From contig JBAYLH010000001.1 in NCBI GenBank assembly GCA_041664165.1, positions 73,469 to 137,468 of the forward strand: a stretch of DNA of 64,000 nt. Direction: 5' to 3'. This DNA comes from Candidatus Buchananbacteria bacterium. GTDB lineage: Bacteria; Patescibacteriota; Patescibacteriia; Buchananbacterales; UBA6539. Positions 5,036-13,810 of the stretch are shown here, piece after piece (the first letter of the stretch is position 1; every line of letters begins with the position of its first letter). A program made the position numbers and the translations under genes. The notes under the pieces were generated by a model. That model was not told where the DNA came from. It saw only the letters and a program-made list of their open reading frames with translations, and searched no databases.

Positions 5036-5212
5036 ATGAAAACTTGCGACATTTGCGGCCGACAACCGCTGAAGGCCAACTGGATAAGCCATTCCAACAT
5101 CAAAACGATTCGCCGGCAGAAACTAAATTTGCAGGCCAAAAAAATTGATGGCAAAAAAATGACGATTTGTACCAGTTGCCTAAAAACTCTATCAAAGAAA
5201 AAAACTAAGTAA
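5036..5212 (+). CDS. rpmB: 50S ribosomal protein L28
   Basis: The 58-aa ORF MKTCDICGRQPLKANWISHSNIKTIRRQKLNLQ...CTSCLK matches the L28 pattern (C.ICGK.P..GN.VSHSN.KT.RR..PNLQ). It is not in the ORF track because it is under 60 aa, and a hairpin plus T-run follows it. Confidence 0.7.
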   Translation: MKTCDICGRQPLKANWISHSNIKTIRRQKLNLQAKKIDGKKMTICTSCLKTLSKKKTK

Positions 5213-5254
5213 CAAGTTAGCTTTTAGCTGATAGGAAAGTTACTTAGTTTTTTT
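5205..5254 (+). terminator. Rho-independent terminator after rpmB
   Basis: Stem CTAAGTAAC...GTTACTTAG followed by TTTTTTT. Confidence 0.6.
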
Positions 5255-5280
5255 ATTGAAAAAATTATTGTCACTTGCCT

Positions 5281-5874
5281 CTAAAAATTATTTTTACCAT
5301 TTAAAAAGGGATTTGGCTGGTCAAAAACGATCCGCGGCGTCTGATTATTAATAACATCCAAAGCCACACCATAACGCTTTTGATAAAGCAAATCGGTTGA
5401 ACCAAAAATCGCTTGGGTATAATCAAAACCCAAACTAACGGCCGCGGCTTTGACCAAATTTTCCGCGGCGGCTTCGATTTCGACGAACGGTTCCAAAAAC
5501 GGCCACTCGTCAATCGTAACTTCGGCTTGACCCAAGCGCCAAATTTCCCGCCGATTTTCCTGGTAAGATTTTTGCACGCAGCCGATACTGGCTAAAAATT
5601 TTACCGCTTGGTTATAATCATTAACCGTCAGACAAATTTCTTTTTGATCGGTAATTTTATCGCCCAAAACGGCTTTTAAACTCATGGTAATTTTATCGCC
5701 TTCGTCTCTCACCCGCAGCCAAGCACCGGGAATATCATTTCCCACCGGCAGTAAAAAAACCGTCCGGCGCTGTAAAAATTCTTTTTTCACTAAAACCGCG
5801 CCGGCGTCAAGCAAGCGCTGGGCCATTTCCGCTTTATTAATATTACAAAAAGTGGCTTCGTATTCAATATCCAT
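5281..5874 (-). CDS. CYTH-domain protein (class IV adenylyl cyclase / triphosphatase-like)
   Basis: N-terminal MDIEYEATF resembles the CYTH E.E.K motif, and the ~190-aa size fits. The call is weak. Confidence 0.45.
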   Translation of the reverse strand: MDIEYEATFCNINKAEMAQRLLDAGAVLVKKEFLQRRTVFLLPVGNDIPGAWLRVRDEGDKITMSLKAVLGDKITDQKEICLTVNDYNQAVKFLASIGCVQKSYQENRREIWRLGQAEVTIDEWPFLEPFVEIEAAAENLVKAAAVSLGFDYTQAIFGSTDLLYQKRYGVALDVINNQTPRIVFDQPNPFLNGKNNF

Positions 5875-8268: not shown

Positions 8269-8664
8269 TTACGCTGATATTTCGGCCGGTTCTGCTTCCA
8301 ATTTCACTTCCTCAGCAACGAAGCAACCCTCAAGTTGCCCCCGAAGTTGCTCCTGGATCATTTTTCTGTTCTCACTCTCCACCTGCGGGGCAAAAAAGAT
8401 TTCGGCCAGATATTCCCTTCCTGAACCGTCTTTAGCCACTACCTTAAACTTCAAGTAGCCACACTGGACTACTAAAGTTTTTTCATCTGGAAGAATTGCC
8501 ATAAAGCTCCAGCCGACATTCTCATCAGATAAAATCTCAAGCAACTGCCACAAGCAACGAATGGCAGCTTTCCAGTCACAGGTTATCTTCGGCACCTCAT
8601 TCGTGCCGTCGGAATCACTAGCAATTTCTTTGCCATTTTGGCCAATCTGAATAGTAGACAACAT
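8269..8664 (-). CDS. Hypothetical protein, first gene of the GC-rich aro operon
   Basis: 131-aa ORF with a strong AAGGAGG SD 7 nt upstream. No family recognised. Confidence 0.5.
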   Translation of the reverse strand: MLSTIQIGQNGKEIASDSDGTNEVPKITCDWKAAIRCLWQLLEILSDENVGWSFMAILPDEKTLVVQCGYLKFKVVAKDGSGREYLAEIFFAPQVESENRKMIQEQLRGQLEGCFVAEEVKLEAEPAEISA

Positions 8665-9057
8665 CGCCTTTCCTCCTTATCTATTGTGTCAAGGAACCTG
8701 CCTTCTCCATTTGATTTCCATTACTACCCAATTTCTGGCCATAACCGCAAAAACCAAAAATTGAATAATAATCAAAAAACTGACCCCTTGTGGCAGATCA
8801 GTTGCTTGCTTTTTTTGCCTATGATTTGGTCAAACTAAGCCAACTAACCTACCCGGTCAGTAAAGAAATAATAACCAAAAAACCAATTGTTTCCCCCGAG
8901 CGAAGTCGAGGGGTTAGTGATATGTCTTGTCATAGGATAAATTTAGATTATACTATTGGTTTAAGAATGTCAAGAGAGGCGAATTGGATTGCTTCGTCGT
9001 CGGTCACCTCTAGTAACCTCCTCCTCGCAATGACAAAAAATTACGCACGGATAAACC

Positions 9058-10625: not shown

Positions 10626-10701
10626 TTCCTAACTTACAAAAATTATACCATTATCACCCTTGAGTGTAAAACTAAAATTATGCTTAATTGAGAAACATAA
10701 T

Positions 10702-10731
10702 AAAAAAAAGACTGGGTGTAAATCCAGTCTT
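10702..10731 (-). terminator. Rho-independent terminator (minus strand)
   Basis: Minus-sense AGACTGG-atttacac-CCAGTCT followed by U8. Confidence 0.7.
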
Positions 10732-10744
10732 CACAAAGGTCAAT

Positions 10745-11104
10745 CTAGGCCGAAAGAACTCCCTCATCTAAGAAGGCGGCCATAGTTCTAAGACCATCCA
10801 ACTTCTTTTCGAGAATCAATTTTGCATCTTCTGTTTGTTGGTTTAGAAACTGGCGAAATTCACCGGCAAAACTACCCCCCAAGGCAAACCTCACGCTGTA
10901 CTGGCCGCCAGTTGAGCTTGATCCCGAAAAATGGAGAACAAAACTATCATTCCCATTAGTCCCAAATGTTGCCTCATGCCAAACATCTTGAGGAAAGGGT
11001 ATCTGCCACAAGAACTTAACTACCTCCCGGCACTCTGGCGGCAAAGACCCAATGTTATCCTCGGTTACTTCCCCTATCTTTGGAAAAAAAAGTTTGATCC
11101 TCAT
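10745..11104 (-). CDS. Hypothetical small protein (paralog of 12768..13142)
   Basis: 119 aa with a strong SD AAGGAGGGAG. It shares G..F.V..S.SSS, SVRFALGG/SVSFVGGG and the C-terminal LILEKKLDG/LRLEKILG segments with the 124-aa ORF. Confidence 0.55.
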   Translation of the reverse strand: MRIKLFFPKIGEVTEDNIGSLPPECREVVKFLWQIPFPQDVWHEATFGTNGNDSFVLHFSGSSSTGGQYSVRFALGGSFAGEFRQFLNQQTEDAKLILEKKLDGLRTMAAFLDEGVLSA

Positions 11105-11159
11105 TGCACTCCCTCCTTTTACCCATTCGGGTCTAAGTTGTCAAAAAAACTTCGCCGCT

Positions 11160-11262
11160 AATTAAAACAACCTTCCGGGTGGAAGGCCTTGTTTGACTTG
11201 TCAGCTTGCTTTTTGGCTGACTAATTAACTATGGCTAAACCTTCCACCCTGAGGCTGGAGCA
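11160..11262 (-). promoter_or_regulatory. Attenuator-like leader A: terminator hairpin CCUUCC-ACCC-GGAAGG plus U-run, with an upstream complementary GGGUGGAAGG
   Basis: In minus sense the order is CCAGCCUCAGGGUGGAAGG, about 50 nt, GGCCUUCCACCCGGAAGGUUGUUUU, then SD and ATG. The same architecture recurs at 13212..13300. Confidence 0.55.
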
Positions 11263-11339
11263 ACAACAAACCTAACAATAAATTGGTTTGGGTAAAGGTT
11301 AATTTCATAGTGATTTCAGCTTATTGTATCCCGAAAAAA

Positions 11340-11470
11340 TTGTCAACCCGGTAGTAGTCCCTCACTTTCAGATAGAGAAAATGCTTGAACATCTATTATT
11401 ACAAATAAAATAAAAATAATTATTTTTATTTTATTTGATGAAGTGAGGGATCACTACCGGGTCAAATTGC
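11340..11470. repeat. Large imperfect inverted repeat (~24-bp arms, ~70-bp AT-rich spacer containing a perfect 34-bp palindrome)
   Basis: Arm CAACCCGGTAGTAGTCCCTCACTT (11344-11367) pairs with AAGTGAGGGATCACTACCGGGTCA (11441-11464). The centre AAATAAAATAAAAATAATTATTTTTATTTTATTT is palindromic. Confidence 0.7.
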
Positions 11471-11521
11471 CGGTTTGGACTAAAAGAAAAAACCCGCAGT
11501 CAAGACGACTACGGGTCGAAA

Positions 11522-11794
11522 TCAGAGCTTAACGCCGCAATTGGCCAAATCCTCCAACGTCCTGGCGTCAGGCTCAACGCCATGGTTTTCCTTAAGCGCC
11601 CGGATAACAGCCGGAACGCAACGATCGCGCAGATCAGCCAGTCTGGCTTCTCTTCGGCCGTTTTTTTCGCTGCCGGATTGAGATGTTTTTCTCAATTTGC
11701 CTATTAGCCCAAACATCTCCGTGATATGCCATCTTAGCCGCCATTTCAGGCATAAAACATTCGGCAAGACTTTTTCACTACCAGTGCCTGTCAT
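11522..11794 (-). CDS. Hypothetical protein (90 aa, basic)
   Basis: GGAGG SD upstream, in the GC-rich island. No family recognised. Confidence 0.4.
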   Translation of the reverse strand: MTGTGSEKVLPNVLCLKWRLRWHITEMFGLIGKLRKTSQSGSEKNGRREARLADLRDRCVPAVIRALKENHGVEPDARTLEDLANCGVKL

Positions 11795-11810
11795 GAAAGT
11801 ATCCTCCGTT

Positions 11811-12458
11811 TCAAGCTACAGTCGTAGCGCCAATGGCAATCGTTGCAAAATCGTTAAGATCGGGCGTAGCCCAGTCAACCCAGCTTTTACAGCAACTGAC
11901 CGGAAAATCGACAATGATAATCCCGGCCTCAGGATCAACGCGCAAGGCAATCCGATGGTCAGTGGTAATACCACGAAACTGGCAATACCACTCGGGCCAA
12001 TCTTGCAGTTTGACGACATCTCTGCACCAGAAATAACCCCAGCCAAAGTCAGGATACTTACCCTCCGGGTCTTGGCGCTGATAGGCAAAGATCGCAGCAA
12101 TGGCTTCAACGGCCGAAATCGGCTGAAAATTCTCCGGCAGCTGCTCGGCCTGCTGGTCAAAGGTCTGACCGTGAACTTTGCCGCTATCGGCAACGGCCAA
12201 AAAATGACACTGACTAACTGGCGACTGGCGCAAAAATGCCATCTGCCTGTAGCGGCCAAAAAGCGGATGATCCCGAAACTGGCACTCGTTTAGCCACCGT
12301 GGTCGCGAGCCAAAACCCCGCGTCCAACCGGCAATGGAATCCGGTTCACCAACGACTGGCTGAGCCTCAATTGTGACAAAATCTTCACTTGCCAGCCTGC
12401 CAGCGGCCAGCGGCGTATGACCAGTGATCCCCTTGGCTGATTCCAACAATGCTCCCAT
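11811..12458 (-). CDS. Hypothetical protein (215 aa, Trp/Cys-rich)
   Basis: GAAGGAGGG SD upstream and GC-rich codon usage that differs from the flanking genes. No family recognised. Confidence 0.5.
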   Translation of the reverse strand: MGALLESAKGITGHTPLAAGRLASEDFVTIEAQPVVGEPDSIAGWTRGFGSRPRWLNECQFRDHPLFGRYRQMAFLRQSPVSQCHFLAVADSGKVHGQTFDQQAEQLPENFQPISAVEAIAAIFAYQRQDPEGKYPDFGWGYFWCRDVVKLQDWPEWYCQFRGITTDHRIALRVDPEAGIIIVDFPVSCCKSWVDWATPDLNDFATIAIGATTVA

Positions 12459-12704
12459 CGCTTTTGACCCTCCTTCTAATTACGGCCAATCTCCAGACTT
12501 AATAATGACAATGAACCAAAAAACAAAAACTAGTCATTTTAGACTAGGTAATTGCTGCTAATTGCTATTGTTTAAGCCAAACTACCCAGTCTTTTGACCA
12601 GCTACCAATACGGTTCTGCCGTCTAAAATTTGGCAAGCTATAGATTTCATAAATCCAGTTTAACAGACTTAAAAAATATGTCAAACCGACCACTAAAAAC
12701 CTTA

Positions 12705-12745
12705 AAAAAAAGAGGAGTCAACTAACAAAAGCAGTTGACCCCAAC
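12705..12745 (-). terminator. Terminator after the 124-aa paralog
   Basis: Minus-sense GGGGTCAACT...AGTTGACTCC followed by UCUUUUUUUU. Confidence 0.55.
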
Positions 12746-12767
12746 TAATAACTTGATTAGTCCGGTC

Positions 12768-13142
12768 TTAGCCGAGAATCTTTTCAAGCCTCAACTCCGG
12801 TTCGCCATTTTGACGAAGGCCATTGTAACGAATACAAAGAGCAATAAGGATTGCTACTGGTTCGCTACGATCGTTACCAATAGCTTGACCACCGCCAACA
12901 AATGATACCGAGGCTCTTTGGTCTTTGAAGGTATGTTCTTCCACCTCCGGCAAATTTGAACCAGCCGGCAAAATCTGCACTAAGGCCAGTCGTACTGCTT
13001 TAGCCAAACTTAAGTCTCTACTAATGAATTCTTGTTTTGAGCTTGAACATGAAACAGCCACTTCAAATTGTTGCCCCTCCTGACCGCCGGTTACGCGCAT
13101 TTGTTTCCAATTCACATAAATACGGCCATTACCTTGCCTCAT
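12768..13142 (-). CDS. Hypothetical small protein (paralog of 10745..11104); ATG at 13142 preferred over the GTG at 13178 used by the track
   Basis: AGGAGGAG SD precedes the ATG (MRQGNGRIY...), and the GTG extension would contain the SD. See the paralog for the shared motifs. Confidence 0.5.
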   Translation of the reverse strand: MRQGNGRIYVNWKQMRVTGGQEGQQFEVAVSCSSSKQEFISRDLSLAKAVRLALVQILPAGSNLPEVEEHTFKDQRASVSFVGGGQAIGNDRSEPVAILIALCIRYNGLRQNGEPELRLEKILG

Positions 13143-13211
13143 ACTATCACTCCTCCTAGACCAGTTCCCTGACGCCACTCTCAGCTAAGCCTTGTTCTAC
13201 TAAGCAAGACA

Positions 13212-13300
13212 ATTAAAAAAACCTTCCGGGTGGAAGGTCTCTTGTATCGTCTAACTTGGTAGTTTACATACTGCTAAGACTTCCACCCAAAGGCTGGCTA
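13212..13300 (-). promoter_or_regulatory. Attenuator-like leader B (same family as leader A)
   Basis: In minus sense the order is AGCCAGCCUUUGGGUGGAAG, about 50 nt, then CCUUCCACCCGGAAGG followed by U7. Confidence 0.6.
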
Positions 13301-13604
13301 ATGATAATGCCGATAATAATATTGCGCTGGATTGAAGTCATATTTTTAATATTAGTATCTTAAACCATCGGCAAAAATCAGTCAAGACCTAATTATAACT
13401 AATTAAACTACCGATAGTTGCCGCCTGCGCCTGAAAAGCATAAGCCGCCCAGCCGAGAAAAAATAATAAAATCATGATGGAAAGAATGGAAAAACCCAAA
13501 AACAAACCGGCTTCACGCAGACTTTGGACTCGTGATTTCGGCTTAGAGCGATAATTTTTGCTTAAATATGGCATTTTTTATCTCATTAAAAAACCTAACT
13601 AAAC

Positions 13605-13736
13605 TTATTCAATATGATCGTGAATAAACTTAATTAGGTCTTTTTCGAATACGCGATAAGTTTTATGGCCGATTTTTGCCGCCCGCAATTGCTTAGAAGA
13701 AACCCAGCGGTAAACCGTTTTTAGGCTTACTTTCAT
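13605..13736 (-). CDS. Small helix-turn-helix DNA-binding protein (excisionase/MerR-like HTH); an alternative GTG start at 13781 gives 58 aa
   Basis: The translation ...LTLEEVAGIMKVSLKTVYRWVSSKQLRAAKIGHKTYRVFEKDLIKFI has the typical excisionase-family HTH pattern. It is under 60 aa, so it is absent from the track. Confidence 0.45.
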   Translation of the reverse strand: MKVSLKTVYRWVSSKQLRAAKIGHKTYRVFEKDLIKFIHDHIE

Positions 13737-13810
13737 TATCCCGGCAACCTCTTCCAAGGTGAGAATTCGGTAGCTAGACACGTTTTTTGCTTAGTGGCTC
13801 CATGAGTTTA

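Follow-up and report, generated by a model that had tools for sequence, protein, structure and literature searches.

Two short leader regions in a 64,000-nt stretch of a Candidatus Buchananbacteria bacterium genome (GenBank assembly GCA_041664165.1, contig JBAYLH010000001.1, positions 73,469 to 137,468; "the window" below, with all positions given on its minus strand unless stated) are very probably ribosome-mediated transcription attenuators, one specific for isoleucine (Ile, 13341..13215) and the other for leucine (Leu, 11308..11164). Each leader holds a short open reading frame (ORF) with a run of Ile or Leu codons and a terminator whose 5' arm can pair instead with the end of that ORF, and each stands before a small orphan gene. 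In related bacteria, leaders of the same family are found in front of citramalate-synthase-like (cimA) and 2-isopropylmalate synthase (leuA) genes. The initial annotation of this region, made from the sequence alone, had proposed riboswitch or attenuation control; the attenuation part of that proposal is upheld by the results presented here and the riboswitch part is not.

Anatomy of the Ile and Leu leaders in the window

The initial annotation had noted repeated blocks, a perfect terminator with a U-tract, a Shine-Dalgarno (SD) sequence and an ATG in both leaders, and all of these were recovered by inspection of the sequence, by shuffling and by a terminator scan that returned both hairpins. 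The exact block CCAGCCTNNGGGTGGAAG (as RNA, CCAGCCUNNGGGUGGAAG) is found at 13297..13280 and 11258..11241, and the exact block CCTTCCACCCGGAAGG, which corresponds to the perfect hairpin CCUUCC-ACCC-GGAAGG, at 13237..13222 and 11186..11171, the distance between the blocks being 42 and 54 nt in the two leaders. When up to three mismatches were allowed, each pattern matched three times in the window (the two exact copies and one match with three mismatches), a number reached in none of 100 window shuffles (means of 0.23 for CCAGCCTNNGGGTGGAAG and 0.43 for CCTTCCACCCGGAAGG). An AGGAGG and then an ATG (13142 and 11104) follow 3' of each U-tract. Upstream of each hairpin, GGGUGGAAG(G) is the exact complement of CUUCCACCC, i.e., of the terminator 5' arm and loop, and the duplexes between them were computed at -19.6 and -20.2 kcal/mol, compared with about -8 to -9.5 kcal/mol for shuffled partners. 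This exact complementarity and these energies support the earlier proposal of mutually exclusive terminator and antiterminator structures with conditional termination.

A leader peptide, which the initial annotation had suggested looking for as a check, is encoded in both leaders, by short ORFs with 7 Ile and 8 Leu codons, and the conserved RNA block consists of the Q-P-x-G-G codons of these ORFs, in frame. The two peptides align residue for residue, with each Ile of one facing a Leu in the other, and both leaders are intact with respect to their promoters, starts, codon runs, stops and all helices (Table 1). The position of the Ile-leader promoter is common to all Ile-type homologs described below, and the Leu-type homologs carry TAAGCT, TAACCT or TAATCT at the same -10 position; the Leu-leader promoter was not listed by the consensus promoter scan of the window. 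The leader ORFs of the Ile and Leu types, and those of a Val-type considered further below, have no SD sequence, and the structural genes have strong AGGAGG sites. The sequence suggests that the leader peptides may be translated in a leaderless or nearly leaderless manner.

Four putative regulatory segments were distinguished: codons 2-5 of the leader ORF (region 1), its Gly-Gly-x codons, GGGUGGAAG(N) (region 2), CCUUCCACCC (region 3), and GGAAGG with the U-tract (region 4). The CCAGCC upstream of region 2 is referred to as region 0. Over the family, region 1 reads AAAUCUUUCACC in the Leu leaders and GACUUUCACC in the Ile leaders (AACCUUUACCC and GACUUCAAUCCAG in the window copies), region 2 reads GGUGGAAGAUUU or GGUGGAAGUC, region 3 is CUUCCACCC with type-specific extensions and region 4 is GGAAGG.

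Table 1. Positions of the leaders, their RNA segments and the genes behind them in the window.
Feature	Position	Strand	Description
Ile-leader promoter	13357..13385	-	TTGACT-17 nt-TAAGAT, sigma-70-like; 15 nt from the end of the -10 box to ATG
Ile leader-peptide ORF	13264..13341	-	MTSIQRNIIIGIIISQPLGGSLSSM and stop; 7 Ile, 6 of them in the run IIIGIII
Ile region 1	13327..13339	-	GACUUCAAUCCAG, codons 1-5; partner is region 2
Ile regions 0 and 2	13277..13297	-	CCAGCC 13297..13292 (Q-P codons); GGGUGGAAGUCU 13288..13277 (G-G-S-L codons), antiterminator 5' strand
Ile terminator	13215..13240	-	region 3 AGACCUUCCACCC 13240..13228; region 4 GGAAGG 13227..13222; U7 13221..13215
Ile-type outer helix	13205..13254	-	spacer just 5' of the terminator (...UUAGACGAUA) pairs with AAUUGUCUUG... 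just 3' of the U-tract, enclosing the terminator
124-aa orphan ORF	12768..13142	-	behind the Ile leader; AGGAGG about 13157..13152; own terminator 12742..12714
Leu-leader promoter	11318..11346	-	TTGACA-17 nt-TAAGCT, sigma-70-like; 9 nt from the end of the -10 box to ATG
Leu leader-peptide ORF	11225..11308	-	MKLTFTQTNLLLGLLLLQPQGGRFSHS and stop; 8 Leu, 0 Ile, 0 Val
Leu region 1	11290..11300	-	AACCUUUACCC, codons 3-6; partner is region 2
Leu regions 0 and 2	11238..11258	-	CCAGCC 11258..11253; region 2 GGGUGGAAGGUU 11249..11238
Leu terminator	11164..11188	-	region 3 GGCCUUCCACCC 11188..11177; region 4 GGAAGG 11176..11171; UUGUUUU 11170..11164
119-aa orphan ORF	10745..11104	-	behind the Leu leader; AGGAGG 8 nt before ATG; own terminator 10732..10707
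Val-type leader	12525..12684	-	promoter TTGACA..TAAACT 12684..12657; ORF MKSIACQILDGRTVLVAGQKTG and stop, 12650..12582
Val-type RNA segments		-	region 0 AGCUGGUCA 12603..12595; region 2 AGACUGGGUAG 12592..12582; region 3 CCUAGUCU 12548..12541; region 4 and U-tract 12536..12525
215-aa and 90-aa genes	12458..11811 and 11794..11522	-	behind the Val-type leader; terminator 11517..11491
Aromatic leader	8774..8973	-	promoter TTGACA..TATAAT 8973..8947; ORF MTRHITNPSTSLGGNNWFFGYYFFTDRVG and stop, 8933..8844
Aromatic terminator	8801..8774	-	CUGAUC...GGGUCAG and U6; alternative antiterminator fold

A family of leaders in related bacteria

Metagenomes were searched with the terminator-only pattern CTTCCACCCGGAAGGTTNTTT, which does not demand a promoter, a short ORF or region 2. 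Nine loci were returned, and five of them (L007, L009, L010, L011 and L013) also had the promoter, the short ORF and the GGGUGGA block, which was counted as independent support for an attenuator. A two-block pattern applied to GTDB species genomes yielded five more true copies (L014, with the same leader as L007, L016, L017, L019 and L021). The other four of nine metagenome matches and three of eight genome matches were rejected as chance matches in unrelated, mostly GC-rich sequence, as was the sole terminator-pattern match in viral contigs, which lies inside a coding region. The use of the conserved 61-aa neighbour described below as bait for more loci gave only two short extra contigs, and an nhmmer search of the window with the leader profile returned only the two Ile/Leu copies.

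With regular expressions, visual inspection and the nhmmer profile, the set grew to 19 distinct Ile/Leu leaders (9 Ile-type and 10 Leu-type), two of which are in the window and 17 on nine other contigs. The records of the loci from the GTDB species genomes are labelled as metagenome-assembled genomes (MAGs) of Patescibacteria, along with two MAGs labelled 'Gammaproteobacteria' and one unclassified bacterial MAG. The leaders are thus conserved well beyond the two copies from which they were first described.

The peptides follow the consensus MT(F/S)..(N/D)IIIGIIIISQPxGGSLSxx in the Ile-type and MKSF(T/A)KQSSLLLLGLLLLQPLGGRFTSV in the Leu-type, each ending in a stop codon. In all 19 leaders the ATG lies 6-15 nt after the -10 box, the stop codon falls in one shared alignment column, and the distance from the ATG to GGNGGA, which occurs in six lengths (51-87 nt), is always a multiple of 3. 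Before region 2, the Ile-type leaders encode 6-8 Ile with at most one Leu or Val, and the Leu-type leaders 6-9 Leu with at most one Ile or Val. The eight Ile homologs of the window copy carry their 6-8 Ile at the matching place, with ATT, ATC and ATA interchanged among copies, and each of the six Leu codons is used somewhere in the Leu-type runs (6-9 Leu in the nine homologs). This swapping of synonymous codons between copies argues that selection acts on the decoded amino acid and not on the RNA sequence of the run.

The initial annotation had described a duplicated module. Two copies of the module are indeed present, but a simple recent duplication does not explain them, since the Ile and Leu copies appear from their sequences to be different specificity classes of an older family, found in at least nine other metagenomic contigs. 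One Leu-type member (L011, 660..800, minus strand) has a one-base deletion in the terminator 5' arm (CCTTC-ACCC), which could be decay or an assembly error.

Genes behind the leaders

Commitment to the citramalate route to isoleucine occurs at citramalate synthase, and commitment to leucine synthesis at isopropylmalate synthase. A citramalate-synthase-like gene stands behind the Ile leader in five of the nine cases (L010, L013, L016, L017 and L019). These genes encode 514-611 aa with HMGL-like and LeuA_dimer domains, and their top NCBIfam model is citramalate synthase, at 392-503 bits, which is below the curated equivalog cut-offs. Behind the Leu leader, a 2-isopropylmalate synthase is found in three of the eight readable cases, with scores of 554.7 bits against a cut-off of 532 in L010, 504.1 against 500 in L019 and 488.7 against 500 in L016. 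The type of codon run thus agrees with the downstream pathway, which is the signature of classical attenuation. Small, poorly conserved ORFs that are not synthase genes follow leaders in L007, L009, L011, L013, L017 and L021, so the coupling of these leaders to non-biosynthetic genes recurs in the lineage.

The shared gene order runs from a response regulator, NDK, HTH_17 and a 61-aa membrane protein to the Ile leader and its gene, then to the Val-type leader with one or two genes, and to the Leu leader with its gene or genes, an ABC ATPase and an ABC-2 permease. In the window, the HTH_17 (excisionase/MerR-like) protein of 58 aa is encoded at 13605..13781 and has relatives of 72-81% identity in five related loci; L014, L017 and L021 carry this neighbour gene along with the leader. 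The 61-aa membrane protein (13389..13574), likewise upstream of the Ile leader, recurs in six related loci at 36-75% identity. An additional conserved ORF of about 60 aa, with one membrane helix and a CxxC...CxxC zinc-ribbon-like tail, was observed between the Leu leader and leuA or the next ORF in L007 (2955..3131), L013 (oriented, 5107..5304), L016, L017 and L019, and is absent from the window; in L016 and L019 it precedes the 2-isopropylmalate synthase.

RNA pairing and the proposed mechanism

Both alternative pairings are thermodynamically plausible. Over 18 leaders, the mean energy of the duplex between regions 1 and 2 (1:2) was -14.4 kcal/mol compared with -6.9 kcal/mol for shuffled sequences, and that of the 2:3 duplex was -19.3 compared with -7.7 kcal/mol. 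In the window, the 1:2 duplex was computed at -14.5 kcal/mol (-7.9 shuffled) for the Ile leader, whose minimum free energy (MFE) fold has the 1:2 and 3:4 helices, and at -14.1 kcal/mol (-8.6 shuffled) for the Leu leader. In constrained folds with the 5' part masked as by a stalled ribosome, the antiterminator formed in 13 of 15 leaders, and masking of the stretch that a ribosome would cover at the stop codon gave the terminator hairpin in 11 of 15. The stop codon lies 21 nt beyond the start of GGNGGA, and the footprint size used for the coverage of region 2 from there is the generally known one for a ribosome.

Matched changes were seen in several helices. The window Leu leader pairs AAC-C-UU with GGAAG-G-UU at the place where other Leu leaders have U-A, and the G in region 2 is met by a C in region 1 and by a C in region 3. 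Between the Ile and Leu types, a U-A and an A-U pair of the 1:2 helix are replaced by A-U and G-C, and the Ile leader of L017 has a rebuilt terminator (UCCGCC/GGCGGA) with which its region 2 is still able to pair.

The mechanism that we infer from this anatomy, in which ribosome stalling, transcription-translation coupling and termination itself would all take part, can be outlined as follows. Transcription would begin a few nt before the SD-less short ORF with its 6-8 Ile codons (13341) or 8 Leu codons (11308). With plentiful charged cognate tRNA, the ribosome would reach the stop codon and cover the 3' half of region 2, or depart and let the 1:2 helix form; in either case 3:4 would form and RNA polymerase would terminate. 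When Ile-tRNA or Leu-tRNA is scarce, the ribosome would stall in the run and mask or separate region 1, leaving region 2 free to pair with region 3, to which CCAGCC may add pairing with region 4. No terminator would then form and the downstream gene would be transcribed, so that the 124-aa and 119-aa orphans of the window would be switched on by Ile and Leu starvation, respectively.

The conserved peptide ends (GGRFTSV and GGSLSSM), together with a hydrophobic core after a basic residue, could also be read as those of functional small peptides, such as Gly-Gly-processed secreted signals, SHP/Phr-like peptides or type I toxins, with the hairpin merely their terminator. A precedent for action in trans is provided by Sinorhizobium, where the leader peptide (peTrpL) and the released RNA (rnTrpL) of an attenuator are able to act in trans (PMC7298713, PMC6614838). 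We regard this explanation as highly improbable, because the conserved ends coincide exactly with RNA regions 1 and 2, i.e., the termini (MKSFT.. and ..GGRF or ..GGSL) are conserved as helix strands, the hydrophobic run is just 7-9 residues long and built from one kind of amino acid, no neighbouring gene encodes a cognate receptor or transporter, and the type of run tracks cimA versus leuA. A role in trans could exist in addition to attenuation, not in its place.

The Ile-type leaders have a further outer helix that encloses the terminator. In the window it was computed at -16.0 kcal/mol (z = -4.7), z was at most -2.3 in seven of the nine Ile-type leaders, and in the Ile leader of L021 the helix is kept with a different sequence (CAUCGCGAUC / GAUCGCGAUG). 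The outer helix was noted in the window, L011, L013, L016, L010, L019 and L021, and might act in the processing or stabilising of the read-through mRNA.

Val-type and aromatic leaders

Between the Ile and Leu units of the window lies a Val-type leader, with helix sequences unrelated to those of the Ile/Leu type and an architecture like theirs. The 5' arm of its terminator (CUAGUCU...GACUAG and U5) is the complement of the last part of the ORF (AGACUGGG). The peptides of six homologs are rich in Val (e.g., MKSIARTTVVLTVVVLVSQTG and MKSIATKTVVVNVVVLVTKTR, each followed by a stop); the window copy keeps its helices with only two Val codons, and its sequence suggests that the sensing function may be decaying. 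In Val-type leaders (e.g., window 12651..12662, L007, L013 and L016) the ATG is only 6 nt past the -10 box.

The Val-type antiterminator is 98% paired, with three of eight pairs changed on both sides, and its covariation score of 0.252 (0.170 +/- 0.022 in shuffles) was reached by none of 500 shuffles. One column of region 3 covaries both with its partner in region 2 and with its partner in region 4.

Two genes of 215 and 90 aa, without Pfam matches, stand behind the Val-type leader in the window. Homologs of both follow Val-type leaders in L017 and L019, and homologs of the 90-aa family are also found in L007, L011 and L016. These two genes (GC 0.54 and 0.51) account for most of the rise in GC content that the initial annotation had called a GC-rich island, which proved to be a modest one, with 0.45-0.525 at 11000-12500 compared with about 0.40 in the flanks. 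A long imperfect inverted repeat (11346..11462), unique in the window, lies between the 90-aa gene's terminator and the promoter of the Leu leader. It has 22-nt arms that are 91% complementary and 73 nt apart, and a central perfect AT-rich palindrome of 18 nt (11402..11437). One of its arms overlaps the -35 region, and weak hairpin-type Rfam matches were obtained on both strands.

The window also contains a leader whose peptide is rich in W, F and Y (WFFGYYFF; ...NNWFFGYYFFTDRVG, then stop), upstream of a 131-aa ORF (8664..8269), prephenate dehydratase and DAHP synthase. Thus, a genuine biosynthetic operon of this genome, at a distance of 2 kb, would also be under leader-peptide attenuation. 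A simple automated scan of the window for further leader peptides gave no additional convincing ones.

Orphan proteins and weighing of the evidence

The 124-aa and 119-aa proteins have no Pfam domain, and in a homolog search of 5.8 billion proteins each matched only itself. Their codon usage looks coding, with log-likelihood ratios of 0.13-0.27 per codon that resemble those of the conserved 58- and 61-aa neighbours and exceed those of most shadow ORFs (ORFs in other frames of long genes). Single-sequence AlphaFold2 (AF2) models had a mean predicted local distance difference test (pLDDT) score of 40.7 for the 124-aa and 62 for the 119-aa protein, too poor for a fold search. The only credible relative of the 119-aa protein is the N-terminal part of a 207-aa ORF in L013 (z = 8.5). 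HMMER searches of 1.8 billion representatives with this protein returned only multi-stretch matches to long, apparently repetitive proteins, which were rejected as relatives and read as compositional; three that were scanned had mostly overlapping sub-threshold Pfam matches, one with GBS_Bsp-like repeats.

The two orphans had been taken for paralogs in the initial annotation. BLASTP aligned them at 23% identity over 47 residues (E = 0.004 for a single comparison), and the local score of 47 compares with 25.8 +/- 4.3 in shuffles (z about 4.7; p of roughly 0.0005-0.01 with different gap costs). The best alignment does not follow the register of the blocks listed earlier, and on these sequence comparisons paralogy is borderline and is not established.

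As both ORFs are orphans with poor AF2 models, the leaders could be relics that persisted after the loss of cimA and leuA and regulate nothing useful, the ORFs being spurious or young. Such a history would be in line with the size of the unit behind the window Ile leader (about 0.5 kb, compared with about 1.6 kb for cimA in relatives), with the adjacent Val-type leader lacking its Val run and with the absence of LeuA and CimA homologs from the 64-kb window. It is nevertheless unlikely, given that every part of both leaders is intact, that regions 1 and 2 of the Leu leader in the window have changed to match each other, and that both ORFs have a well-spaced AGGAGG, their own terminators and codon scores comparable to those of conserved small genes. 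Leaders before non-synthase genes recur in the related loci listed above, and no traces of synthase sequence were found: the possibility that the orphan ORFs are remnants of cimA or leuA was rejected after tblastn in both directions gave nothing above chance.

Several observations weigh against ribosome-mediated attenuation in the form proposed here. The Ile/Leu core helices vary so little that their covariation is not significant: they are 87% and 93% paired, there is one double change per helix, and shuffles were not exceeded. The covariation check put forward in the initial annotation gave a clear signal for the sister Val-type family. The 0:4 pairing of CCAGCC with GGAAGG and UU is weak (duplex z about -1), and is present in MFE folds of Leu-type leaders. 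Additionally, region 1 is upstream of the regulatory codons and not over them as in trp, so that its masking works only for stalls at the first few codons, or needs a ribosome between regions 1 and 2. The loss of most Val codons from the window Val-type copy makes decay possible in this genome. Finally, the downstream genes in the window are orphans with no branched-chain link, and the regulatory sense proposed for them would come only from the relatives.

Comparison with known systems

At gathering thresholds, Rfam returned only a tRNA in the window; the initial annotation had not recognised the element as any known riboswitch class. An E-value scan of 10700..13450 gave sub-threshold noise and weak matches to Phe_leader (RF01859; 22.5 bits against a gathering threshold of 55, E = 1.1, with the whole model spanned, in both leaders). 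This family, itself a leader-peptide attenuator, was the only one that matched both leaders and the best-scoring match over either. Leu_leader (RF00512) gave no match at E up to 10, nor did the Rfam T-box on the leaders.

A metabolite-binding riboswitch, in which a small molecule chooses between antiterminator and terminator, would equally show mutually exclusive helices and a highly conserved 18-nt block. It is scarcely credible here, as this block is made of codons read in frame within a conserved short ORF, the amino acid that the run encodes varies and tracks the downstream pathway, which makes the Ile or Leu run the signal, and no Rfam riboswitch matched the leaders at E = 10. Furthermore, the region between regions 2 and 3 is variable in sequence and length, which leaves no conserved pocket.

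T-box elements likewise sense tRNA charging and choose between an antiterminator and a terminator, and the T-box motif also contains GGGUGG. Unlike them, the leaders described here have no Stem I, specifier loop or bulged UGGN, their antiterminator is fully paired, and they are only 125-145 nt long. Due to these differences and the lack of an Rfam match, a T-box reading was rejected.

Ribosome-mediated attenuation in this family is most like that of E. coli and Salmonella trpL, leuL, ilvL/ivbL, pheL, hisL and thrL, with which it shares a translated leader ORF with a cognate codon run, an intrinsic terminator before the first structural gene, four segments with 1:2, 2:3 and 3:4 alternatives and, in relatives, the first committed enzyme (leuA) as the target. 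It differs from these classical attenuators in belonging to none of them by sequence or covariance model, in its patescibacterial host, in its SD-less ORF 6-15 nt past the -10 box, in having region 1 upstream of the run and an extra CCAGCC that perhaps pairs with region 4, and in a separate Ile-only leader for citramalate synthase and the orphan targets in the window.

Control of branched-chain genes by leader peptides outside the proteobacteria is found also in Staphylococcus aureus, with a Leu-rich ilv-leu attenuator peptide (PMC5794164), and in the Listeria ilv attenuator (PMC5864092). These are single leaders of a whole ilv-leu operon that act with CodY, whereas the window has Ile, Val-like and Leu leaders in series, with their own promoters and units of one or two genes. 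In actinobacteria, comparative genomics revealed RNA-level control of leuA and ilv genes, in some cases with leader peptides and terminators; Seliverstov et al. 2005 (PMC1262725) described ilvB leader peptides and a LEU element upstream of leuA that is a pseudoknot without a classical leader peptide. In contrast to the LEU element, the patescibacterial family has a full classical attenuator with a different sequence.

A literature search returned no report of leader-peptide attenuation in Patescibacteria or the Candidate Phyla Radiation (CPR), nor of a leader peptide controlling citramalate synthase. Transcription and translation must be tightly coupled for this kind of attenuation, which has been described mainly in Proteobacteria, Firmicutes and Actinobacteria. 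The mechanism proposed here is a textbook one; the novelty lies in the family, in the phylum that hosts it and in its link to orphan genes.

Implications

It is possible, as a tentative suggestion, that this reduced patescibacterial lineage retained its serial Ile, Val-like and Leu starvation sensors after the loss of biosynthetic genes and re-used them to turn on fast-evolving, lineage-specific small proteins whenever one particular amino acid is short, or that the attenuator RNAs or leader peptides act in trans like rnTrpL and peTrpL. If this is true, such small proteins could help the cell to scavenge from a host cell or to interact with it.

The points of interest are the host phylum, the serial Ile-Val-Leu arrangement and the orphan targets. 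The family is compact and has several specificities (Ile, Leu, Val-type and aromatic), and it provides an Ile-specific attenuator for a citramalate-synthase-like gene. Annotation of CPR genomes would benefit from a covariance model of the family. The leaders also label as 'induced by Ile or Leu starvation' orphan genes that could not otherwise be annotated, and so give a concrete handle on the function of those genes. Altogether, the family implies that these very small bacteria, which are probably symbionts, keep track of how far individual tRNAs are charged.

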